Below are positions 3,018 to 61,708 of a DNA stretch of 64,000 nt, one piece after another. How positions within the stretch are numbered: position 1 is the stretch's first letter; every line of letters begins with the position of its first letter. This stretch comes from Capsulimonadaceae bacterium. GTDB taxonomy: Bacteria; Armatimonadota; Armatimonadia; Armatimonadales; Capsulimonadaceae. The translations under genes were made by a program, and so were the position numbers. The notes beneath the pieces were generated by a model. The model was not told where the DNA came from, ran no database searches, and saw only the letters and a program-made list of their open reading frames with translations. The DNA is taken from contig OZ251980.1 of NCBI GenBank assembly GCA_965246745.1, positions 1,444,280-1,508,279 of the forward strand, read 5' to 3'.

Positions 3018-3974
3018 TCAGATTTCCAGCGCGGTCATGCGGCGGATCAGCAGGGCACCGACCCCCTGCCCGGCGACTGCGCCGCCGATCAGCCAATGCC
3101 CAAACGGACTTTGCAGCAGCGGCCCGAAATACTCCGGGCTTTTCAGGGTCAAAATCAGCGCCAGCGCCGGGGCCAGCACAATCAAAATCACCGCCGACAA
3201 GCGCCCTTCGGCAGTCAGCGTCTGCACTTCGCCCGTGACCCGCACCCGCTCGCGGATGGTGTCGGCGATGGCGTCCAAGACTTCCGCCAGGTTGCCGCCG
3301 AGCGGAAGCTGAATCAAAATCGCCGTCCCGACTAAATCAAGGTCGGGCGACGGCACCCGCGCCAGGACCCGGCGCAGCGCGGTTTCCAGCGGGACGCCGA
3401 GCGCGGCTTCGCCCGACGCCCACGCAAACTCGGCCGCCAGCGGCGGCGGCAGCTCGTCGGCGGCGGTCTGCATCGCCGCTGAAAACGAAAGCCCGGCCCG
3501 CAGCGCCGACGACAGAAGCATCAAAGCATCGGGAAGCTGCGTTTCGCACCGCCGAAGCCGTGCCTGCCGCCGCCCCTGCAGCGCCAGCGACGCGCCCAGC
3601 GGCCCAAGCGCGGCCAGGCCGAGCGCGGGAACAAGGCGGCCGGACACGAGCAGCCCGCACAGAAAGCCCGCCACGGTCAGCCCGGCGCACAGCGCCAGCC
3701 ATTCGGCGGGGCGCAGGCGCAGATCGGCTTGCAGCATCGCCAGCCGCAGGCGCGGCTCGAACTCCTGCGCGGACAGCCAGCGGGTCACGGTCGGCAAAGG
3801 GTCGGGCCGCAGGCCGCGCTCGGTTTCCGGCAGGGGCGGCGCGGCGGCGGCGGGCCTGCCGGCGAGGCGGTCCAGCCGCGCTTGCAACCCGGTCCGGCGG
3901 CGGCTGTGGAGGAGCGCAAAAACCCCGCCGAAGGCCGCGACAAAGCTGAGAAGGGCAATAAATAACGGGTTCAT
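3018..3974 (-). CDS. tadB: Flp pilus assembly protein TadB (T2SSF domain)
   Basis: 318 aa protein with TM segments and a T2SSF-like region. It lies directly downstream of cpaF. Confidence 0.8.
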   Translation of the reverse strand: MNPLFIALLSFVAAFGGVFALLHSRRRTGLQARLDRLAGRPAAAAPPLPETERGLRPDPLPTVTRWLSAQEFEPRLRLAMLQADLRLRPAEWLALCAGLTVAGFLCGLLVSGRLVPALGLAALGPLGASLALQGRRQARLRRCETQLPDALMLLSSALRAGLSFSAAMQTAADELPPPLAAEFAWASGEAALGVPLETALRRVLARVPSPDLDLVGTAILIQLPLGGNLAEVLDAIADTIRERVRVTGEVQTLTAEGRLSAVILIVLAPALALILTLKSPEYFGPLLQSPFGHWLIGGAVAGQGVGALLIRRMTALEI

Positions 3975-5183: not shown

Positions 5184-6297
5184 AAAGGCTCCTCCCCAGC
5201 GCGGACACGGCGCACGCGGCGCGGCTGCTCGGATGCGACAGCACAAACGGAATGCCGCTGTTGACCGATGCCGGGACAATTTTGCCGTCGTTCGGGATTT
5301 GCCAGTCGGCGGGCCGCCCCAGCGCCCGCGCGGCGTCGGCGGGCTGCAATTTATTGGACGGCGCGGCGCGGTTCAAGCCCACCTGCACGGTGTTCAGCGG
5401 GACGGCATCCAGCCACAGCCGGGTCGCCGCCAGCGTCGCCAGGTCAAACAAATTGGCCGTCAGCAGCACGCAGTCGGCTTCTTCGAGCACGCGGCGGGAC
5501 GCTTCGCTCAGCGCCGCCGGCAGGTCCACGACAATGTGGGCGTATTCGCCGCGCAGCAGCGCCAGCAGCCGGTCCAAAAGCGCAAGCGTCAGGCCGTCGG
5601 CGTCCATCGGGGCCGCCGCGCCGGCCAGCAGCGCGAGGCCGCACGCATGCCGCTCGGCGTGGTCTTCCACCAGCGCGGCGTCCCAGTCCGCCGGGTCTGC
5701 CAGCGCCCAGTCCGCGAGAGTTCGGCGCGGAAAAAGGTTCAGCAGCAGGGCGGCGTCCGCAAACTGCGTGTGCAGGTCCAAAAGCACGGTCCGCTCGCCG
5801 GTTTCCGCCGCCAGCGCCGCCGCGAGGTTCACGGCCAGGGTGGTGGTGCCGACCCCGCCTTTCGCGCTCGTGACGGCGACAATCCGGCCCGGCGGCCGGG
5901 CGTCGGCGGCGGGCGTGCTGCGCCGGTGCAGGTCGGCATACACCGACTGCACGGCGGCTTGCAGCGCGGCCGCCCCGGCGGTGCGGCAGACGACTTCCCG
6001 CGCTCCCGCCCGCATCGCCCGCCGCAGGGCGGCGTCGGAGTCGTCGGCGCAGACCAAAATCGTTTCCAGCGGCAGGCCCGCCGCCGAAAGCGCCGCCGCC
6101 GCCGCAAAGCCGCCGTCCGGCGGCAGGTCGTCGGCAATCAAGACCACTTCTGGCCGCAGCACACGCGCCAGCCGCAGGCACTCGCCGCCGTCGCGGGCCG
6201 CGCCGAGGATTTCGATCTGCGCGTCCGAAGACAGCGCGGCTTGAAGCTGATCGCGGCGCTCGGGATGAGGGTCGGCGAGAAGTGTATGGATTGGCAT
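5167..6297 (-). CDS. cpaE: CpaE/TadZ: N-terminal receiver-like domain fused to a ParA/MinD-type ATPase
   Basis: 376 aa. The deviant Walker A is VTSAKGGVGTTTLAVNLAAALA, and the N-terminal region has a CheY-like fold pattern. Confidence 0.8.
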   Translation of the reverse strand: MPIHTLLADPHPERRDQLQAALSSDAQIEILGAARDGGECLRLARVLRPEVVLIADDLPPDGGFAAAAALSAAGLPLETILVCADDSDAALRRAMRAGAREVVCRTAGAAALQAAVQSVYADLHRRSTPAADARPPGRIVAVTSAKGGVGTTTLAVNLAAALAAETGERTVLLDLHTQFADAALLLNLFPRRTLADWALADPADWDAALVEDHAERHACGLALLAGAAAPMDADGLTLALLDRLLALLRGEYAHIVVDLPAALSEASRRVLEEADCVLLTANLFDLATLAATRLWLDAVPLNTVQVGLNRAAPSNKLQPADAARALGRPADWQIPNDGKIVPASVNSGIPFVLSHPSSRAACAVSALGRSLYAARR

Positions 6298-6314: not shown

Positions 6315-8084
6315 CTACGGCTCCGGCAGATTAACCGGCGGGCCGGGCTTGCCCGTGTCCCCGCCGCCGTGCTGAAGCTCAGGAAAATCTTTGTCGAAAT
6401 CGGTGCGCCCGTCGCCGGGCCGGGCAATCGGCGGGTTTTCGAGGCTGCCGGGCGGCGGCGGAAACGCCTCGGTCGTCGCCGGGGTGACAATCTCGGGCTG
6501 GATCAAAATCAGCAGCTCGCTTTCTTCTTTGCGGGTCTGGGTGTTCTTGAAAAACTCGCCAAGCACCGGGATTTGGCTGAGCAGCGGAATTCGGCTTACC
6601 TGACGCGAGGCCGTGCTGCTGTACAGGCCGCCGATGACCAGTGTTTCGCCGTCGGCCATTTGCAGCGTGGAAGTCGCCCGGCGAACGGTCAGCGCGGGCA
6701 CCGAAAAGCCGGAAAGCTGGAGGCCCGCGCCGTAGTTCAGCTCGCTGACTTCCGGCGTCACGGTCATCTGGACAATTTTGTCGCCGATCAGCGACGCGTT
6801 GACCAGCAGGCGGACGCCGTAAGGCTTGTATTCAATCGCTACCGAGGCGCTTGCGCCGAGGGTGCCGCTGCTGGACTGGGCGACAGGAATAGGAATCTCG
6901 CCGCCGACCAGAATGCTGCCGTCGCAGCCGTCCAGCACCATCAGTCGCGGCTCGCTCAGCACCCGCGCTTTGTTTTCGGCGATTAAAGCGTTGAGCTGGG
7001 CCGCAAACGGCGAAATTCGGTTGAGGCTGCCGCCGCCGAGCAGGCTGGAATACGCCGAATTGACTGCGCCGGATTGGCCGAACAAAATCGGCTGCGGCTG
7101 AAACGTGTAAGTGCTGCCGCCGCGCCCTGCCGACAATCCGCCGGTGCCCCACTCCACGCCGAGGCTTTTTGTCGCGCTGCGGTTGATGTCTATGATCTTG
7201 GCTCGGACAAGTATCTGCCGGGTCGGGCCGCCGCCCAGATTCAGTAAATTGATGACTTTGAGGTCGGGCGGCAGGGAATGAATCAGCGTGTCGAGCGGGT
7301 CCGACGGCGCGGCATCGGACGCCAATCTCCCGCCGCTCGGCTTGCGCGGGTCTTTGGCCGGGTCCGCGTCGTCGGCCGGCTCCGTGCCGGCGCTGTCGCC
7401 CTCGGCTTTGCGCTTGCTGCGGCGGCGCGGCTGCGGCGCGGGCCACTCGGCGGCTTCGGCGGACACGCCCGGCGCGGCGGGGCGGCGTCGGTACTGCCCG
7501 GACAGGGCCAGGGTCTTGTCGCCCACAATTTGCACGGAAATCCCGAGCGGCGCAAGCGGCGGGGTCAGCAGCGCGGCGTAGGTCTCGGCCAGGGTCGGCG
7601 CGGGGACGGACGCGGGCACGACGGCAATCAGATTTTTGATTTTGGGCGCATACACCCCGGCAATCGCGGCGGCCCGCTGGGCGGCGACGGCAGTGGGGAC
7701 GCTGCCTTCCAAAAAAACCGTGTCGCCGTAGGCACGCACGCGGACGCCGGGCAGGCCGACGGCGGCCTGCACGGCGGCGGCGACCGGGGCGAGGCTGACG
7801 GCGGGCGGGCCGACCACTGTGAGGCGCAGGCGGTGAGCGCCGGCATGGTCGCAGACAAACAGCATGGTCTGTCCCAAGCTCTTGGCATTGACCAGCAGCC
7901 GCCGCGATGACAGCGGGACAATATCGGCGACCGCCGGGCTGCCGACAGCGGCGGTGGTCATGCGGTCGAACGTGTAAACCTCGGACTGCCCAACGACCAG
8001 TGTTTTCCGGGCGGTCTGCGTCCGGCCCGGCAGGGCCGTTGACAGAAAGCACAGCAGCAGGCAAAGCGTGATTATGGATTTCAT
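6315..8084 (-). CDS. cpaC: Flp pilus secretin CpaC/RcpA
   Basis: From the internal ATG at 8084 the protein starts MKSIITLCLLLCFLSTALPG (a signal peptide). It has a BON-like N-terminal region and a secretin domain (VLSEPRLMVLDGCDGSILVGGEIPIPV ... LILIQPEIV). The 878 aa ORF in the track extends upstream spuriously across cpaB. Confidence 0.8.
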   Translation of the reverse strand: MKSIITLCLLLCFLSTALPGRTQTARKTLVVGQSEVYTFDRMTTAAVGSPAVADIVPLSSRRLLVNAKSLGQTMLFVCDHAGAHRLRLTVVGPPAVSLAPVAAAVQAAVGLPGVRVRAYGDTVFLEGSVPTAVAAQRAAAIAGVYAPKIKNLIAVVPASVPAPTLAETYAALLTPPLAPLGISVQIVGDKTLALSGQYRRRPAAPGVSAEAAEWPAPQPRRRSKRKAEGDSAGTEPADDADPAKDPRKPSGGRLASDAAPSDPLDTLIHSLPPDLKVINLLNLGGGPTRQILVRAKIIDINRSATKSLGVEWGTGGLSAGRGGSTYTFQPQPILFGQSGAVNSAYSSLLGGGSLNRISPFAAQLNALIAENKARVLSEPRLMVLDGCDGSILVGGEIPIPVAQSSSGTLGASASVAIEYKPYGVRLLVNASLIGDKIVQMTVTPEVSELNYGAGLQLSGFSVPALTVRRATSTLQMADGETLVIGGLYSSTASRQVSRIPLLSQIPVLGEFFKNTQTRKEESELLILIQPEIVTPATTEAFPPPPGSLENPPIARPGDGRTDFDKDFPELQHGGGDTGKPGPPVNLPEP

Positions 8085-18927: not shown

Positions 18928-19710
18928 TCAAGGGATGTTTTTGCTGTTTTTCGAATCCGCCGCTTTGGCGGCGCGGCGGACGGCCATCACGGCGACATCG
19001 TCGGAGAAGCGGCCTCGGCAGAAGGCGGACACTTGACGCAGGAGGCTTTGGATCAGGCGGCGGGGGGGCAGCGCGGCGAGACGGGCGAAGAGGGCTTTGA
19101 GGCGGGGCAGGCCGAGCCAGTCGAGGCGCGACTGCGGCGGGCGGGCATCGGACACGCCGTCGGTGTAAAGCAGCAGCGTGCCGCCGGGCGGCAGGGTGGC
19201 CGAGTGCTCCTCAAAGCGGGTCATGGCGGGCGGGAACGCCCCGACCGGCGGGCCGGTGCCTTCCAGCTCCTGCACGGCGTCGGGGCTTTGGGCATCGGCG
19301 GGGGCGATCAAGGCCGGCTCGTGGCCGCCGCTGGCGTAGACCAATCGGCCGGTGCCGGACTCAAGGGTCCCGACAAACACGGTGCCGAAGCCCTCAAAGT
19401 TCGGGTCCGGCTCGATCATGGCATTGACGGCGGACAGGGTTTGGGCGGGGGAAAAGCCGACCGAAAGGCAGTCGGACAGCAGCTCGCGCATGTGCTCGGC
19501 CTGCAATGCCTGCTCGGGGCCGTGCCCGGCCACGTCGCCGATGACTACGGCGACCTCGCTGCTCGCCCCGGCGTCCAGCAGAAACGCCGCGTGGAAGTCG
19601 CCGCCCGACGGCGGGGTGGCGGGGATGTCGGCATACGCCGCGCTGTATTCGGGGGTTAAAGTCTGCGCTCCCGGAGTCAGCGGTATATCGGTCGTGGGAG
19701 GCGTGTCCAT
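18928..19710 (-). CDS. PP2C-family serine phosphatase (SpoIIE/RsbU-like)
   Basis: From the internal ATG at 19710 it reads MDTPPTT... The motifs FLLDAGASSEVAVVIGDVAGHGPEQALQAEHMRE and GTLLLYTDGV are present. The longer 473 aa ORF in the track is a GC artefact that overlaps the upstream GT2 gene. Confidence 0.8.
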   Translation of the reverse strand: MDTPPTTDIPLTPGAQTLTPEYSAAYADIPATPPSGGDFHAAFLLDAGASSEVAVVIGDVAGHGPEQALQAEHMRELLSDCLSVGFSPAQTLSAVNAMIEPDPNFEGFGTVFVGTLESGTGRLVYASGGHEPALIAPADAQSPDAVQELEGTGPPVGAFPPAMTRFEEHSATLPPGGTLLLYTDGVSDARPPQSRLDWLGLPRLKALFARLAALPPRRLIQSLLRQVSAFCRGRFSDDVAVMAVRRAAKAADSKNSKNIP

Positions 19711-19718
19711 GTCTTTGA

Positions 19719-20864
19719 TTATAACACAGGTTCGGTGATTGTGCCAGCGGCGAACAAAACGCGCGTCAGGGCGGCCCCGGAGCCAAGCTCGGCTTGAGCG
19801 CCTTCCAGATACCGGACATTGTAAATCACCGACAGCGCGGCAAAGGCCGGGCCGGCCCGGCGCAGGCGGTAGGCGGCGCGGGCGGCCGGCAGCAGCAGCG
19901 CCCGCAGCGGTGCGCCGAGGCGCGGGGCGGCCAGAACGACGCGGGCCAGCAGGCGGGTGGCGCGATTGCGGGCGGCGTAGCCGTGCCGCACGGTGTCCCA
20001 CGACGTGTCCCCGCGCTGCGCCCGGACCACATCCAGGCGGCCATACGCAAACGGCACGGCGAGCCACGACGCAAACTTCCGGCGGGGCCGGTGGATGCCC
20101 CGCGCGTCGGGCGCGTACACAAACTCGACGCCGCGCTGTTTTTCGAGCCGCACGGCCAGCTCGACATCTTCCTGACGCGGGAACTGCTCGTCGAAGCCCC
20201 CGACGGCGACCAGGTGCCGGCGGCGCACGGACGCATTTCCCGAGTAAAAGTGATGCGGCCCGCAGCCGTCCCACTCGCCGGTGCGCCAGGCCGTGTACTG
20301 CTTTTCCAGCATCGCGTGCTCCCACGCAATCCACACCGGCTCCTGCCACAAAAGCGCCGGGTCGGGCACCATCGGCGCAATCACGACTGCCGTGTCGCGG
20401 CCGGCATGCCGGGCGGCATGGACCGCTAGAAACTCGGGGGCCGGCTCCACATCGTCGTCGAGAAACACGACAATCTCGCCCTGCGCTTCTTCAATGCCGT
20501 GGTTGCGGGCGCGGGCCGGACCGGCGTTCGCTTGGAACACGGGTCGCAGCGCAAACGGCGCGGCGCGGGCGTACTCGGCCAGAAACGCGTCGGTGCCGTC
20601 CGTGCTGCCGTCGGAAACCACCACCGCCTCAAACTGCGCGGCGGGAAACGTCTGCCGGGCCAGGCCGTCCAGCGTTTTTTGCAGGCTGTCCCGGCGGTTG
20701 AAAGTCGGGATGACGACGGACAGGAGCGGCCCCCCCGCCCCAATTCTGGGGAGCCGGAGAGGAAACGAGGCTTCCACTGACTCTGTATTGCTCCCCAGAA
20801 TTGGGGTTTTATTGGGGTGGGCGGGGGGGCTATCTCCAAAAACAGGGAAGTTTGGGTCGCTCAT
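19719..20864 (-). CDS. Family 2 glycosyltransferase (GT2)
   Basis: The motifs LSVVIPTFNRRDSLQKTLDGLARQ and AVVVSDGSTDGTD and the DxD region are present. The start ATG at 20864 overlaps the stop of the upstream acyltransferase gene. The N-terminal 40 codons span a palindromic element. Confidence 0.85.
   Translation of the reverse strand: MSDPNFPVFGDSPPAHPNKTPILGSNTESVEASFPLRLPRIGAGGPLLSVVIPTFNRRDSLQKTLDGLARQTFPAAQFEAVVVSDGSTDGTDAFLAEYARAAPFALRPVFQANAGPARARNHGIEEAQGEIVVFLDDDVEPAPEFLAVHAARHAGRDTAVVIAPMVPDPALLWQEPVWIAWEHAMLEKQYTAWRTGEWDGCGPHHFYSGNASVRRRHLVAVGGFDEQFPRQEDVELAVRLEKQRGVEFVYAPDARGIHRPRRKFASWLAVPFAYGRLDVVRAQRGDTSWDTVRHGYAARNRATRLLARVVLAAPRLGAPLRALLLPAARAAYRLRRAGPAFAALSVIYNVRYLEGAQAELGSGAALTRVLFAAGTITEPVL
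20727..20830. repeat. GC-rich palindromic element, copy 1 (TIR family GCCCCCCCGCCCCAATTCTGGGGAG), inside the GT2 N-terminal coding region
   Basis: The left arm is gcccccccgccccaattctggggag and the right arm is ctccccagaattgggg...ggggtgggcgggggggc. This is the same family as the copies at 59979-60107 and 60620-60749. Confidence 0.75.
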
Positions 20865-21427
20865 GGGGTATCCAGGGTCCGAATAAACTTTGCGGGAATG
20901 CCGCCGACCAGGGTATGCGGGGCCACGTCTTTGGTGACCACCGCGCCCGCCGCCACCACTGCGCCCGCGCCGATTGTCACGCCCGGCAGGATCGTCACCG
21001 ACGCCGCAATCCACGCGCCGTCTTCAATCCGCACCGGGGCGGTTTCAACATCGCCCGCCCGAAACAGCGCCGGGCCGAGCGCATGGCCGGTCGTCACGAT
21101 CACCACATGGTGCCCGACCGCGACCCCGCTGCCGAGCGTCACCGGCCCGGCGGCGTCCAAAAACAGCGGGCTGTTGAGAAAGCAGCCTTCGCCGATTTGC
21201 AGCGTCCGGCGTGGGTCGCCGGACAAGCCGAATTGCAGCGGCCCGGCGATCAAAGTCCGCGCTCCGATCTGAAACCCCGCCAGCCGGTACAAGCGAGTCC
21301 GCAGCCGGCAGCCGACGCCGAGCGGCAGGGCATGAATGATCCCGTCCATCACGCGCAGCGTCAAAGGCCGGGTGCCGAGTTCCGAGCGCAGAACGCGCAG
21401 CAGTTTGGAAAGCCGGGTGCGGCTCAT
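20861..21427 (-). CDS. Hexapeptide-repeat (left-handed beta-helix) acyl/acetyltransferase
   Basis: The hexapeptide repeats run IGEGCFL...LGSGVAVGHHVVIVTTGH...IEDGAWIAASVTILPGVTIGAGAVVAAGAVV. Confidence 0.8.
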   Translation of the reverse strand: MSRTRLSKLLRVLRSELGTRPLTLRVMDGIIHALPLGVGCRLRTRLYRLAGFQIGARTLIAGPLQFGLSGDPRRTLQIGEGCFLNSPLFLDAAGPVTLGSGVAVGHHVVIVTTGHALGPALFRAGDVETAPVRIEDGAWIAASVTILPGVTIGAGAVVAAGAVVTKDVAPHTLVGGIPAKFIRTLDTP

Positions 21428-21451
21428 GGCTTGTCTTTCACGGCTTGTCTT

Positions 21452-21991
21452 TCACGGCTTGTCTAAAACCCGGATCAGCCGCGCCGGGACGCCCCCGACC
21501 AGAGTGTTCGGGGCTACGTCTTTGGTCACCACCGCGCCGGCCGCCACCACCGCGCCGCGCCCGACAGTGACGCCTTTCAGAACCGTCACCCGCGCCGCCA
21601 GCCAGACATCGTCTTCAATAATCACCGGCCGGGCTTCCGGCGGAACCGTGTGGTCATGGGTGGAGTGAAAATCCGTGTCCATAATCAGCGTCATGTTGCC
21701 GACCGCGCAGCGAGCGCCGATCTTGACATGCTTGGCGGCGCACAGCGACGCCCCGCTGTTGATATACGTCCCGTCGCCGATTTCCAGCACGCCGCCGGGC
21801 ATCGCCGCCAGCTCCACCGGCAGGTGGGTGGCGCGAATTCGCACTTTGCTGCCGAGGCGGATGGTGCCGGCGTTTTCCACCAATAATTTGCCCTGCACGC
21901 GCGGCCAGCGGCCCACCGATGAGCACCGGCGGGTTTTCCAGCGGCTCGACACCAGCAGCACAACGAGAGACACGGCGGCGGCAGGGGTCAT
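21452..21991 (-). CDS. Hexapeptide-repeat acetyltransferase (second copy)
   Basis: From the internal ATG at 21991 it reads MTPAAAV... The repeats are IGDGTYINSGASL...IEDDVWLAARVTVLKGVTVGRGAVVAAGAVVTKDV. Its start overlaps the GT2 stop (ATGA). Confidence 0.8.
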   Translation of the reverse strand: MTPAAAVSLVVLLVSSRWKTRRCSSVGRWPRVQGKLLVENAGTIRLGSKVRIRATHLPVELAAMPGGVLEIGDGTYINSGASLCAAKHVKIGARCAVGNMTLIMDTDFHSTHDHTVPPEARPVIIEDDVWLAARVTVLKGVTVGRGAVVAAGAVVTKDVAPNTLVGGVPARLIRVLDKP

Positions 21992-22917
21992 CGGGTCCCT
22001 TCCGGCAGCCGGTACAAGCGGGTGCGGCGGTCCACGCCGTGCCGCAGGCTCAGGGCCAGGCCCGCGCAGACGCCGCGCAGCAGGGTCAGGTCGGTGTTGG
22101 TCCGGCGCAGGGCCGCCTTCGCCCCGGCCCGCGCGGACAAATGCACCAGGGTTTGAAGGAGCCGGCGCAGCGCCCAGCCGTCGCCGCAGCGGGCATGCTT
22201 GGCAAAAAACGCCGCTTCCCCCACCCCGTAGCCGTGCAGCACCGCCAGCCAGCGGGCGGGGGTCCGCCAGGCCCGGTGGTACAATCGCAGAGACGGGCGC
22301 AGCACCGCCCGCGCCCCGGCGAGGCGCAGCCGGTACACAAAGTCCCCTTCCTCGCCTGCCGGAAACGACGCCCCCGGCCCCATCGCCGGGTCGAACAACC
22401 GCGCCCCGGCCGGCAGGCGGGCCAGCGCCGACCGGCGCAGAGCCATGTTCGCGCCCATGCCGCAGACTTCGCCGGGCCGCAGGTCGCGGGCCTCGGTGAA
22501 CGACCACGCGGGGACGCACACGCTGTCGAGGTCGGGAATGGCCGGCGACGGCAGCACCGGGCCGAACAAAATGTCGGCGTCGGGGGCGGCGGCAAACGCG
22601 GCGGCGATCTGCTCCAGCCAGTCCGGCGGCGCTTCGCAGTCGTCGTCGGTGAACGCCAGCAGGGGAGCGTCGGTCTCGGCGATGCCGAGGTCGAGGGCGC
22701 GGGACTTGCCGACGGTCGTGGTCGGCAGGTAGCGCAGCGCGGGCCGGTCCGCCGCAAGGCGCTCGGCGACCTGCCGGGTCTCGTCGTTGTCGCTTTGGTC
22801 CACCAGCACCAGGTCCCAGTCGCCGCGCAGGCAGGCCAGCACGGTCGGCAGGCACAGCGCCACATCTTCGGGCCGGTTTCGGGTGCAGATGATCACGGAA
22901 AGTTTCGGCGTCGTCAT
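21988..22917 (-). CDS. Family 2 glycosyltransferase (GT2), second copy
   Basis: It starts MTTPKLSVIICTRNRPEDVALCLP and also carries LLAFTDDDCEAPPDWL. The start is at 22917. Confidence 0.85.
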   Translation of the reverse strand: MTTPKLSVIICTRNRPEDVALCLPTVLACLRGDWDLVLVDQSDNDETRQVAERLAADRPALRYLPTTTVGKSRALDLGIAETDAPLLAFTDDDCEAPPDWLEQIAAAFAAAPDADILFGPVLPSPAIPDLDSVCVPAWSFTEARDLRPGEVCGMGANMALRRSALARLPAGARLFDPAMGPGASFPAGEEGDFVYRLRLAGARAVLRPSLRLYHRAWRTPARWLAVLHGYGVGEAAFFAKHARCGDGWALRRLLQTLVHLSARAGAKAALRRTNTDLTLLRGVCAGLALSLRHGVDRRTRLYRLPEGTR

Positions 22918-34869: not shown

Positions 34870-35143
34870 GTTTCGCCTCCTCCAAGTGGCCCTTTCCTGC
34901 CCCGTAGGGCGTAGGGCATGCCCCTACCCTCCTCTCCGGGTCAAGAAGCTGCGTCAAGCCTGCCCGATACTCCGTAAGCACTTCCTCCGCCAGCCGGACC
35001 AGAGCCGGTGACGACTGCGTAAAAGATCGCTGCCAGCGCTGCTCGTCTTCCAGTTCTTCTAAAATCAGAGCCGCAATCGCATCTTGATCGGGTTCCGCCA
35101 GTTGCTGCACCTGAGCATAAGCGCGTTCTAATAATTGGGTCAT
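34856..35143 (-). CDS. hypothetical acidic helical protein (antitoxin-like)
   Basis: 95 aa with no motif recognised. It is overlapped by the hicB start. Confidence 0.3.
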   Translation of the reverse strand: MTQLLERAYAQVQQLAEPDQDAIAALILEELEDEQRWQRSFTQSSPALVRLAEEVLTEYRAGLTQLLDPERRVGACPTPYGAGKGHLEEAKREAV

Positions 35144-56067: not shown

Positions 56068-56150
56068 TTTCGTTCTCTCCTGTTTTGTATATTTAGCCAA
56101 TTATCTAATTATAATAGTTTAGGCTGGGTTTGTCAAGAGGCAAAAAGCAG

Positions 56151-56310
56151 GGCGAACACAAGGTTCGCCCCTACGGGGTACAGAATAGGATTAGGAACGG
56201 GATGTAGGGCGCGAACCTTGTGTTCGCCCTTCTGGTTTATGTTCGCCCTTCGGGGCTGTTATTTACGCCCTTCTGGTTTATGTTCGCCCTGCTTATTGTG
56301 TTCGCCCTCC
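56151..56310. repeat. Cluster of short direct and inverted repeats built on TTCGCCC (ggcgaacacaaggttcgcc palindrome; TTCTGGTTTATGTTCGCCCT x2; GTGTTCGCCC x3)
   Basis: Read directly from the sequence. The cluster lies upstream of the radical-SAM gene. Confidence 0.55.
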
Positions 56311-59971: not shown

Positions 59972-61708
59972 TTGACAAGCAGAAGCGGCCCCCCCGCCCC
60001 CAATAATGGGGGAGTCCGAAAAGACATATCTGTGAGGGCGCGGCTTGCCGCGCCCTCTGTTCCTCGTCTGACTCCCCCATTATTGGGGGCGGGGGGGCCG
60101 CTTCTGCGGACGGCCCTCTCCGGCCTGCTGCTGGCGGGGGCGCTGCCGCACCTGGACTGGGGCTGGCTGGCGTGGGTCGGCCTTGCGCCGTTTCTCGCGC
60201 TGTTTCCGTTTCGCAGCAAGCGGGCGGCGTTTGGGCATGGGTTTCTGCTCGGCGTGTGTTACCTGGGCGGAATGGCCTACTGGGTCGCCGTTTTTGCCGC
60301 GCCCATTCTCGGCCCGGCCCTGGGCGTGCTCGGCTGGGCATTGGTGACGGCGTATCAGGCGTTTTACCTTGCCGTCTGGGCGCTCGGGGCGCAGTGGCTG
60401 GCGGGGCGCGGGGTCTGGGCGTGGCGACTAGGCGTGCCGGCGCTGTGGGCGGTGGTGGAATGGTGGCGGCAGTCGGGCGACCTCGGCTTCGGCTGGGGGG
60501 ACCTCGCGTACACGCAGCACCTGGCCCTGCCGGTGCTTCAGCTCACGAAGCTCTCGGGCATTTGGGGCCTGGCGTTTTTGATTGTTCTGGTGAATGTCGC
60601 GCTGGCGGAAGTGGTGAAGGCCCCCCCGCCCCAATTCTGGGGAAAAGCCCCCCCGCCCCAATTCTGGGGAGCCATATGGATAAGAAGGGCGCAGCAAGCA
60701 GCGCCCCTACGGGTTCTTTTCCGGCTCCCCAGAATTGGGGCGGGGGGGCAATTTCCCCTGGCCGTGGCCGCGCTGCTTGTCACTGTTCTAGCCTGCGGCG
60801 GCGTCAGCCTGCGGACCGAGCATCTTGCGCCGACTTTTACAGCGGCGGCTTTGCAGGGCAACATCTCGCAGAATGTCGAGCAGGACGCGGCGTACAAAGC
60901 GCGGGTGACTGCGACGTTCGGTGCCCAAACGCGAAGCGCGGCAGCGCGGGGGGCGACTTTGGTGGTCTGGCCGGAAACAGCGTATCCGGGCTATTTGCAG
61001 AGGGCGGACACAAGCCGCGCCCAAGTCGCGGGGGTTCTCGGCGAAACAGGGCAGACGGCGCTGATTGGGGGGGTGGACTTCGACCCGGCGGAGCGCAAAA
61101 ACGCCAATGCGCTGTTTGCGCTTTCCCCAAGCGGGGCCGTCACAGGCGTCTACCGCAAGCAGCACTTGGTGCCGTTCGGCGAGTTTGTGCCGGGGCGGAA
61201 ATGGCTGCCGTTTCTCGCGGCGCTGCATGTCACAAACTTCGACATGGCGGCCGGCACAGGGGAGCAGGGGCTGCTGGGCGGCGGGCCGGGCATCGGCAAG
61301 ATCGGCGCGGCAATCTGCTTTGAGTCGTCGTACCCGCGCGTCCTGCGCGAGCAGGTGCGGCAGGGGGCGGGGCTGCTGGCGATTTCGACCGACGACGCTT
61401 GGTTCGGGCGGACGGCGGCGGCGCGGCAGCATGCGGCGATTGCGGCGGTGCGGGCGGCGGAAACCGACCGTTATTTAGTCCGCAGCGCGGCGACCGGCGT
61501 GTCGCAGATTGTTGATCCGACCGGGCGGGTGCTGGCCGAAGCGGACTTGTTTCAAGCGTCGGTCGTCAGCGCCCCGGTGCAGTCCCGGTCCACCGTGACG
61601 CCGTATGTCCGCTGGGGCGACTGGTTTATCGGCGTCTGCGTCGTTTTAATTCTCGCCGTTAGTGCTCGTGCTCGCCGCGCAGGAACCGCTCGTAGTTCGG
61701 GCCGCTGA
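59972..61708 (+). CDS. lnt: Apolipoprotein N-acyltransferase Lnt, carrying two in-frame palindromic-element insertions
   Basis: The TM N-domain is LLLAGALPHLDWGWLAWVGLAPFLAL… The CN-hydrolase domain carries …LVVWPETA…ICFESSYP… (E/K/C triad context). The annotated TTG start lies inside element copy 2. Confidence 0.85.
   Translation: MTSRSGPPAPNNGGVRKDISVRARLAAPSVPRLTPPLLGAGGPLLRTALSGLLLAGALPHLDWGWLAWVGLAPFLALFPFRSKRAAFGHGFLLGVCYLGGMAYWVAVFAAPILGPALGVLGWALVTAYQAFYLAVWALGAQWLAGRGVWAWRLGVPALWAVVEWWRQSGDLGFGWGDLAYTQHLALPVLQLTKLSGIWGLAFLIVLVNVALAEVVKAPPPQFWGKAPPPQFWGAIWIRRAQQAAPLRVLFRLPRIGAGGQFPLAVAALLVTVLACGGVSLRTEHLAPTFTAAALQGNISQNVEQDAAYKARVTATFGAQTRSAAARGATLVVWPETAYPGYLQRADTSRAQVAGVLGETGQTALIGGVDFDPAERKNANALFALSPSGAVTGVYRKQHLVPFGEFVPGRKWLPFLAALHVTNFDMAAGTGEQGLLGGGPGIGKIGAAICFESSYPRVLREQVRQGAGLLAISTDDAWFGRTAAARQHAAIAAVRAAETDRYLVRSAATGVSQIVDPTGRVLAEADLFQASVVSAPVQSRSTVTPYVRWGDWFIGVCVVLILAVSARARRAGTARSSGR
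59979..60107. repeat. GC-rich palindromic element, copy 2: perfect 37 bp TIRs (gcagaagcggcccccccgcccccaataatgggggagt) flanking a 55 bp core that contains its own hairpin (gagggcgcggcttgccgcgccctc)
   Basis: Read directly. It overlaps the lnt 5' end. Confidence 0.8.
60620..60749. repeat. GC-rich palindromic element, copy 3: duplicated left arm (gcccccccgccccaattctgggga x2) and right arm ctccccagaattggggcgggggggc
   Basis: It lies inside lnt and is translated in frame as KAPPPQFWGKAPPPQFWG…LPRIGAGG. Confidence 0.8.

Follow-up and report, generated by a model that had tools for sequence, protein, structure and literature searches.

In-frame fusions of repeats with open reading frames (ORFs), at the 5' end, at the 3' end or internally, have been documented for the Rickettsia palindromic elements (RPEs), for BRE of Bordetella, for RUP, BOX and SPRITE of pneumococci, and for ERIC of enterobacteria (PMC10969869, PMC3184786). 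As summarised there, RPEs (Ogata et al. 2000, 2002) are palindromic repeats of ~100-150 bp that occur in many copies, a fraction of which is found in frame in unrelated proteins, at sites compatible with the fold (PMC10969869, PMC3184786). Another group, the REPINs, consists of doublets of repetitive extragenic palindromic (REP) units that form hairpins, are mobilised by REP-associated tyrosine transposases (RAYTs) and are described as extragenic (PMC3116915, PMC3337134). Here we report on E3, a palindromic repeat within the coding sequence of a GT2-family glycosyltransferase gene, in a stretch of 64,000 nucleotides from a Capsulimonadaceae bacterium (GenBank assembly GCA_965246745.1, contig OZ251980.1, positions 1,444,280 to 1,508,279), hereafter the window. 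[quoted passage not shown]

Results

E3 within the GT2 gene

The original prediction, made from the letters of the window, had placed a palindrome at positions 20727-20830, at about codons 12-45 of the GT2 gene. The palindrome is present, measured at 20729-20830 and thus two bases off, and its in-frame location stands; translation from the ATG at 20864 assigns it to codons 12-46 (SPPAHPNKTPILGSNTESVEASFPLRLPRIGAGGP). E3 is nearly perfect as a palindrome: a perfect inverted repeat of 17 nt, CCCCAATTCTGGGGAGC (20738-20754 and 20790-20806), is enclosed by an outer perfect inverted repeat of 12 nt (GCCCCCCCGCCC / GGGCGGGGGGGC, at 20729-20740 and 20819-20830). The 16-mer arm core CCCCAATTCTGGGGAG, with at most two mismatches, occurs five times in the window, compared to 0.04 occurrences in shuffled sequences, and none of the 100 shuffles gave five. 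Folded in the mRNA sense, the 161-nt stretch 20715-20875, which contains E3, has a predicted energy of -73.4 kcal/mol (z = -4.8) and forms mostly one long E3 hairpin that begins 33 nt past the GT2 ATG. An intrinsic terminator was ruled out on the strand of the gene because no U-tract follows the hairpin there, the next sequence being CCGCUCCUGUCC, and a terminator scan returned just small hairpins on the opposite strand, within E3. An Rfam search over 19000-22000 gave nothing but two sub-threshold chance matches.

The host gene has the properties of a functional glycosyltransferase gene. An identical 381-aa protein is on record, along with 730 homologues at E <= 1e-20, and the match to PF00535 (E = 8.6e-29) covers residues 49-189 and profile positions 1-140, i.e., the catalytic domain from strand beta-1 onward. 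The 336-residue core is intact and shares 80-83% identity with the nearest element-free orthologues; the ratio of nonsynonymous to synonymous substitution rates (dN/dS) in the core, 0.16-0.19 in comparisons with five orthologues, is indicative of purifying selection on the gene. An AlphaFold2 model based on a 32-sequence alignment has a mean confidence (pLDDT) of 85, with values below 50 for residues 1-41 and the first strand, beta-1, at residues 48-55. In this model the peptide encoded by E3 is a disordered N-terminal extension of the enzyme, and the insertion site suits the fold, being located in a predicted-disordered terminus ahead of both beta-1 (48) and the Pfam domain (49).

The start codon of the GT2 gene forms an ATGA overlap with the stop codon of an upstream acyltransferase gene. 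This overlap (CCATGAG) was found in all six loci that were read as DNA, namely, the window, one locus with an empty site (L098) and four loci with filled sites (L097, L099, L100, L101). In all six the GT2 protein starts with MS or MR, whether or not the element is present, and the acyltransferase-GT2 gene order is conserved in L098, L099, L100 and L101. Because the overlap and the leader are conserved with and without the element, the ATG would represent an ancestral, translationally coupled start that is placed upstream of the insertion. It had also been stated that no alternative ATG or GTG lies between the element and the catalytic domain; this is literally true (no in-frame ATG, GTG or TTG was found between the end of E3 and beta-1 in the GT2 gene of the window), but it misses a GTG inside the element. 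The first in-frame start downstream of E3 lies 101 nt past the padded boundary (the arm core plus 12 nt), within the domain, so that initiation at this codon would delete beta-1.

GT2 orthologues with and without the element

For this comparison, we used the 120 best GT2 orthologues, which have 58-83% identity. In ~113 of them, the leader before LSVVIPTFN includes only 2-10 residues, e.g., MSQTSPLLLSVVIPTFN at an empty site. An element or its remnant was detected in the leader of seven: the window protein, P0002, P0019, P0029, P0033, P0003 and P0027. The arms belong to the AATTCT type in P0002 and to the AATAAT type in P0019 and P0029; P0033 has a single arm, and the copies of P0003 and P0027 are degenerate. 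Filled and empty sites are also visible in the DNA alignment. This comparison, which had been suggested as a check of the original prediction, identified the element as an insertion downstream of a conserved ATG that most orthologues do without.

All indels between element copies are multiples of three, and the reading frame is held across the element in the four filled orthologues. The copies of the window and L097 differ, in frame, by a 15-nt partial duplication of the arm that is the 5' arm in the gene sense, present in E3 and not in the L097 copy, and by 6 nt in the centre. The element arms of these two genes are identical at 31/31 and 37/38 positions and the centres are about half alike, whereas the synonymous sites of the same genes differ by 49%. 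This would mean either that young copies were inserted independently or that something reads the arms and keeps them constant. Probably, E3 was inserted fairly recently and separately from the copies that occupy this site in other lineages. Comparison of centres gave no clear sign of shared ancestry of the copies at orthologous sites: the similarity of the centres did not clearly exceed that of random pairs (p = 0.044, 0.12, 0.17, 0.35 and 0.94), with low power at this divergence.

It had further been proposed that the LPRIGAGG peptide is common to GT2 and Lnt, and that the element is tolerated, or even co-opted, as coding sequence in several genes. The shared peptide was recovered, being encoded by E3 and by an internal copy, E2, in lnt. 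Tolerance as coding sequence in GT2 and in other genes is supported by the conserved upstream ATG and by the in-frame copies elsewhere. Co-option found no support: LPRIGAGG corresponds to just one of three arm frames, all of which are used elsewhere, most GT2 orthologues lack the element, and the copies of P0003, P0027 and P0033 are visibly decaying. The insertion is tolerated rather than useful.

The repeat family in Armatimonadota

Scanning one genome per species with a 20-nt arm sequence, we found at least 96 arm-bearing stretches in about 20 assemblies, nearly all of them from Armatimonadota (Capsulimonadaceae, 'Armatimonadales'); a census beyond the window had been proposed along with the original prediction, and the family indeed reaches far outside it. 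Many such stretches often come from a single genome, one 4.2-Mb contig alone accounting for at least 27 loci. The family loci and the window contain 126 arm clusters, of which 54 are doublets, 4 carry an additional arm and 68 are single arms. All 54 doublets have the F...R order, i.e., inverted units of ~30 nt (GCCCCCCCGCCCCAATTCTGGGGAGCC) around a variable centre of ~20-60 nt. In the consensus of 157 arms, the conserved unit of ~30 nt is GCCCCCCCGCCCCAATTCTGGGGAGCCgGA; conservation ends at the outer G and fades into the centre. The inner ends of the arms have two forms, AGCCGGA and AGC(C/A)ATAC(G/A)GA, so that most full copies have polarity. Arm variants of the family include ...CCCCCTAGCCCCC... 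and the AATAAT subtype. The arms are nearly invariant between genomes as divergent as those of the window and L097, and contain no stop codon in any of the six frames. No direct-repeat target-site duplication of 3 nt or longer was detected in any of 42 doublets; their flanks are rich in purines on the left side and in pyrimidines on the right, and show partial complementarity. We infer that the element is mobile and is inserted in a single-strand, 'no-duplication' mode.

The family was not found described in the literature available, in which both the arm sequence and Armatimonadetes repeats were looked for. At the protein level, a word-index search with the concatenated three-frame peptide gave 8 candidates, none of which scored, and a peptide profile search of 1.84 billion representatives gave just 3 matches, short Pro/Gly-rich peptides being beyond the reach of either tool. 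It should be noted that five stretches (L028, L034, L042, L068, L093) come from the assembly JBPBQB01, labelled Janthinobacterium lividum. This assembly also encodes the GT2 orthologue P0045, which is 73% identical to the window GT2, and because of this close orthologue we consider the label or the binning of JBPBQB01 to be probably wrong. In CAVYTV01 (L006, L010, L014, L023, L025), several copies adjoin, before or after, the same flank containing GTATAGAAT, which suggests a larger composite repeat unit.

Genomic location of copies

The flanks of 110 copies located off the locus edges were classified using a codon-usage model trained on 255 long ORFs of the family loci. Eight of the 110 copies (~7%), four of them full doublets, are deep intragenic and in frame, and 102 are not deep in genes. 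Of the latter, 33 have no coding flank and 48 have one, 18 are placed between same-strand genes, and 3 separate genes of opposite strands (2 in convergent and 1 in divergent orientation). A preference for the 5' ends of genes was rejected, as 43 5' ends and 47 3' ends face the element. By this classification, the family is mainly a gene-boundary repeat with an apparently translated minority.

Outside GT2 and lnt, the in-frame hosts are PMT_2 membrane glycosyltransferases (L063, L092, L093), a BlaR1-type M56 protein (L083) and an ABC ATPase (L054), and in an OpuAC protein (L022) the element is located at the extreme N-terminus. The arm is used in all three frames: PPAPILGS/LPRIGAGG, APPPQFWG/APQNWGGG/SPELGRGG and PPRPNSGE. 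In the PMT_2 genes (L063:5047-5124, L093:3530-3604, L092:1871-1987), the element lies in frame in the same loop, at profile position ~127-131 of 160. Two of these three hosts are orthologues that share 70% identity and differ in arm subtype; the third, only 26% identical, uses another reading frame. Two copies of L089 are located at gene ends: the copy at 5700-5843 forms a 3' extension of a membrane-protein ORF, of which it provides the final ~35 codons together with the stop region, and the copy at 3758-3900 directly precedes a thioredoxin-like gene's ATG and signal peptide, where a gene caller could wrongly extend the ORF through the repeat.

The presence of copies at orthologous sites is not restricted to one arm subtype. 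The same protein sites, namely, the GT2 leader, the Lnt leader and the PMT_2 loop, are filled in different lineages by different arm subtypes. At the 5' end of lnt, the window has the AATAAT subtype and the L094 orthologue (7872-7952) the AATTCT subtype, the two genes having 79% nucleotide identity, and 160 kb of DNA of the L094 genome contain 37 AATTCT arms and no AATAAT arms. Such recurrence can be explained by re-use of permissive sites. Three copies per 64 kb would correspond to ~180 copies if the density were equal across the genome (the record of the identical GT2 protein is on a contig of 3.84 Mb). Under the assumption of about one gene boundary per kb, ~5% of boundaries would be occupied, compared to 6% (7/120) observed at the GT2 boundary, and special targeting is thus not needed.

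Other features of the window and accompanying repeats

The coordinates of all features are collected in Table 1. In the lnt gene, the left arm of copy E2 is duplicated and its centre contains a REP of the GTAG type, whereas the arms of copy E1 have the variant core CCCCCAATAATGGGGG. The lnt ORFs of the window and of L094 both start with TTG ('MTS'); the TTG of the window belongs to a TTGACA that could equally be a -35 box. The G+C content of the segment 28000-46000 is 0.45-0.60, with the minimum of 0.45 at 36-38 kb, compared to 0.64-0.71 elsewhere in the window, and this low-G+C stretch may be a foreign island.

Table 1. Coordinates of E3, its host gene and related features of the window
Feature	Position	Strand	Remarks
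GT2-family glycosyltransferase gene, 381 aa	19719..20864	-	Host of E3; Pfam PF00535
Hexapeptide-repeat acyltransferase (acetyltransferase) gene, upstream	20861..21427	-	Pfam Hexapep; stop overlaps GT2 start
GT2 ATG	20862..20864	-	Overlaps TGA of upstream gene (20861-20863), giving ATGA
Palindromic repeat copy E3, 102 nt	20729..20830	-	GT2 codons 12-46, in frame
Arm unit GCCCCCCCGCCCCAATTCTGGGGAGCCGGA	20729..20757		Left arm on + strand, 3' arm in gene sense; encodes RLPRIGAGG; fits family arm consensus
Variable centre of E3, approximately the hairpin loop	20758..20786		Centres vary among copies, arms are conserved
Second arm unit, GTATTGCT-CCCCAGAATTGGGG...CGGGGGGGC type	20787..20830		Split by the 15-nt partial arm duplication
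In-frame insertion of 15 nt, TTTTATTGGGGTGGG (+ strand)	20807..20821		HPNKT in protein; from alignment of orthologue 5' ends
In-frame GTG, codon 30	20775..20777	-	In E3 centre; sole alternative start before catalytic domain
Copy E2, same family	60620..60749	+	In frame in lnt, between LNT_N and CN_hydrolase domains
Copy E1, AATAAT arm subtype	59988..60098	+	5' end of lnt ORF
GTAG-REP	60687-60710		Inside E2
GTAG-REP	56150-56174		
GTAG-REP	34907-34927		

The same genomes contain a second, classical REP family with a GTAG head and a GC hairpin, e.g., GTAGGGGCGCTGCTTGCTGCGCCC and GTAGGGGCGAACCTTGTGTTCGCCC, with 32 matches in the examined DNA. The larger element frequently harbours the GTAG-REP in its centre, as in E2 and the GT2 copy of L100. 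One RAYT-like ORF was found, L004:660-1265 (+), in a related genome; it has the HUH-like motif NHLH and reaches 22.1 bits with Y1_Tnp, for which the cut-off is 23, and is flanked on both sides by GTAG-REPs (L004 350, 524, 960, 1272) and not by arms of the family. One GTAG-REP copy is inserted within this ORF itself, adding RPERDGRTQGSPLQ. An IS200-like transposase at L089:46-509 (+) is frameshifted into two ORFs, each with ~50 bits on Y1_Tnp, and lies 3 kb from any arm. Pairs of arms located 0.5-3 kb apart, candidate ends of a parent insertion sequence, enclose ordinary genes and not transposases in the ~0.85 Mb examined.

Proposed origin of E3 and alternative explanations

The following sequence of events could have produced the observed locus. 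The element family mostly settles at gene boundaries, and at this boundary the ATGA overlap of the acetyltransferase and GT2 genes leaves no intergenic spacer, so that the copy would have landed in the first ~10 GT2 codons, between the coupled ATG and beta-1. With arms that are free of stop codons in six frames and an inserted length that preserves the frame, the ribosome would be expected to read through E3. The product would be a GT2 enzyme with a disordered, Pro/Gly-rich N-terminal extension of 35-38 residues.

Several observations speak against this scenario, or at least against parts of it. Translation would have to pass a hairpin within a 161-nt stretch with a predicted energy of -73 kcal/mol, and an in-frame GTG, 19 codons ahead of beta-1, is a possible start instead of the ATG. 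The independence of insertions draws on a neighbour-joining tree of catalytic cores in which the filled genes are scattered, with just P0002 and P0003 as sisters, and this tree carries no support values. No autonomous parent element with the ends of the family was detected in the ~0.85 Mb examined, and the RAYT-like gene of L004 could not be linked to the element as its mobiliser, since it is flanked by a different repeat. Finally, the occupancy of one site by two subtypes in several lineages could also be explained by site-directed insertion or by conversion in place, as opposed to chance re-use. All these points should be taken into account in assessing read-through of a tolerated mobile repeat, which we nevertheless regard as the probable explanation.

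A more far-reaching proposition appears rather unlikely. It holds that the copies represent an undescribed, widespread and still-active palindrome family of Armatimonadota, moved by an enzyme that is neither a classical RAYT nor a DDE transposase, which returns to the same sites, including those in homologues that are 26% identical. If this is true, the recurrence at the same sites with AATTCT and AATAAT arms reflects site-directed insertion, replacement of the resident copy or in-place conversion, and not random re-use.

It is improbable that translation starts at the GTG in the E3 centre (20777-20775), in which case just the second arm would be translated (VEASFPLRLPRIGAGGPLL...), codons 1-29 acting as a leader or as a coupling ORF upstream in that frame. 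The element centre of L022 does contain an ATG ahead of a plausible signal peptide, and the AATAAT-type arm has an in-frame TTG in L099 and L100. Conversely, the GTG is not conserved, given that the filled L097 orthologue lacks any in-frame start codon, both within its element and downstream of it. Furthermore, the GTG is located within the centre of the predicted long hairpin, where part of the centre is paired in the fold, no well-spaced Shine-Dalgarno motif is discernible upstream of it, and the conserved ATGA overlap already offers a mechanism of initiation at the upstream ATG.

An explanation of comparably low probability is that the hairpin is a selected regulator at the junction of two genes, which protects the upstream message from 3'-exonucleases or throttles or attenuates GT2 expression, the peptide being a by-product. 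In enterobacteria, REP hairpins between cistrons are known to stabilise the mRNA upstream; here, a very stable structure is predicted for the mRNA (z = -4.8), the arms are conserved far more than synonymous sites, and the same junction is occupied in several lineages. However, the conservation of arms holds across the family whatever the context, ~94% of the orthologues do without the element, the remnant and single-arm copies are indicative of decay, and the hairpin, with no U-tract behind it on the strand of the gene, is not a terminator. Inactivation of GT2 by the insertion, i.e., a pseudogene in the making with an ORF that is open only since GC-rich arms lack stop codons, is very improbable: long spurious ORFs do arise easily when arms are open in six frames in DNA of 67% GC, but the intact 336-residue core, its identity to element-free orthologues, the low dN/dS, a reading frame that four independent filled orthologues preserve through the element, with copy differences in multiples of three, and the confident, complete fold predicted by AlphaFold2 all argue against it.

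Discussion

Insertions of a repeat of this kind can lengthen the N-termini and loops of proteins without the genes being destroyed. Because the arms are open in six frames, gene callers would both overextend ORFs via intergenic copies and yield real proteins with repeat-encoded segments, and knowledge of the family helps to separate the two. The filled and empty sites could also serve as markers of strain history in Armatimonadota.

Classical MITEs are derived from insertion sequences with DDE transposases. The Armatimonadota element is similar to them in being small and non-autonomous and in having terminal inverted repeats, but differs in that target-site duplications are absent from all 42 doublets and no insertion sequence with the same ends was found in the ~0.85 Mb examined. 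The similarity to REPINs extends further, to inverted units around a less conserved spacer, a long hairpin, a high copy number, a bias toward gene boundaries and units conserved across genomes, as well as to the occurrence of singlets beside doublets and the lack of target-site duplication. Unlike in REPINs, the arm consensus has no GTAG head, GTAT being present in just one inner arm type; the repeat that flanks the RAYT-like gene of L004 is a separate one of the classical REP type (GTAGGGGCG...CGCCC), itself nested in the centres of some copies; and some copies lie in coding frame, whereas REPINs are described as extragenic.

BRE, RUP, BOX, SPRITE and ERIC/YPAL lengthen genes at their 5' or 3' end or, in a handful of proteins, are located internally (PMC3184786). 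The present element is likewise seen at the 5' end in GT2 and lnt and at the 3' end in an ORF of L089. They differ in sequences and hosts, and several of them have terminal inverted repeats with target duplications or a known parent insertion sequence, neither of which was found here.

In behaviour, the RPEs are the closest analogue. The Armatimonadota element is likewise a multi-copy palindrome of ~100 bp that is found in frame in unrelated proteins, where we infer its translation, at sites compatible with the fold. About 7% of the copies lie deep in genes here, compared to about half in some RPE families, and the element uses all three frames, whereas an RPE encodes one conserved peptide. 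The phylum is unrelated as well, and the arms are GC-rich, whereas Rickettsia genomes are AT-rich; sequence similarity is not expected, and from base composition and host phylum, common descent with the RPE families is unlikely. With this family, the range of 'protein-coding palindromes', so far Rickettsia and a few further bacteria, would come to include a high-GC phylum that has been little studied.

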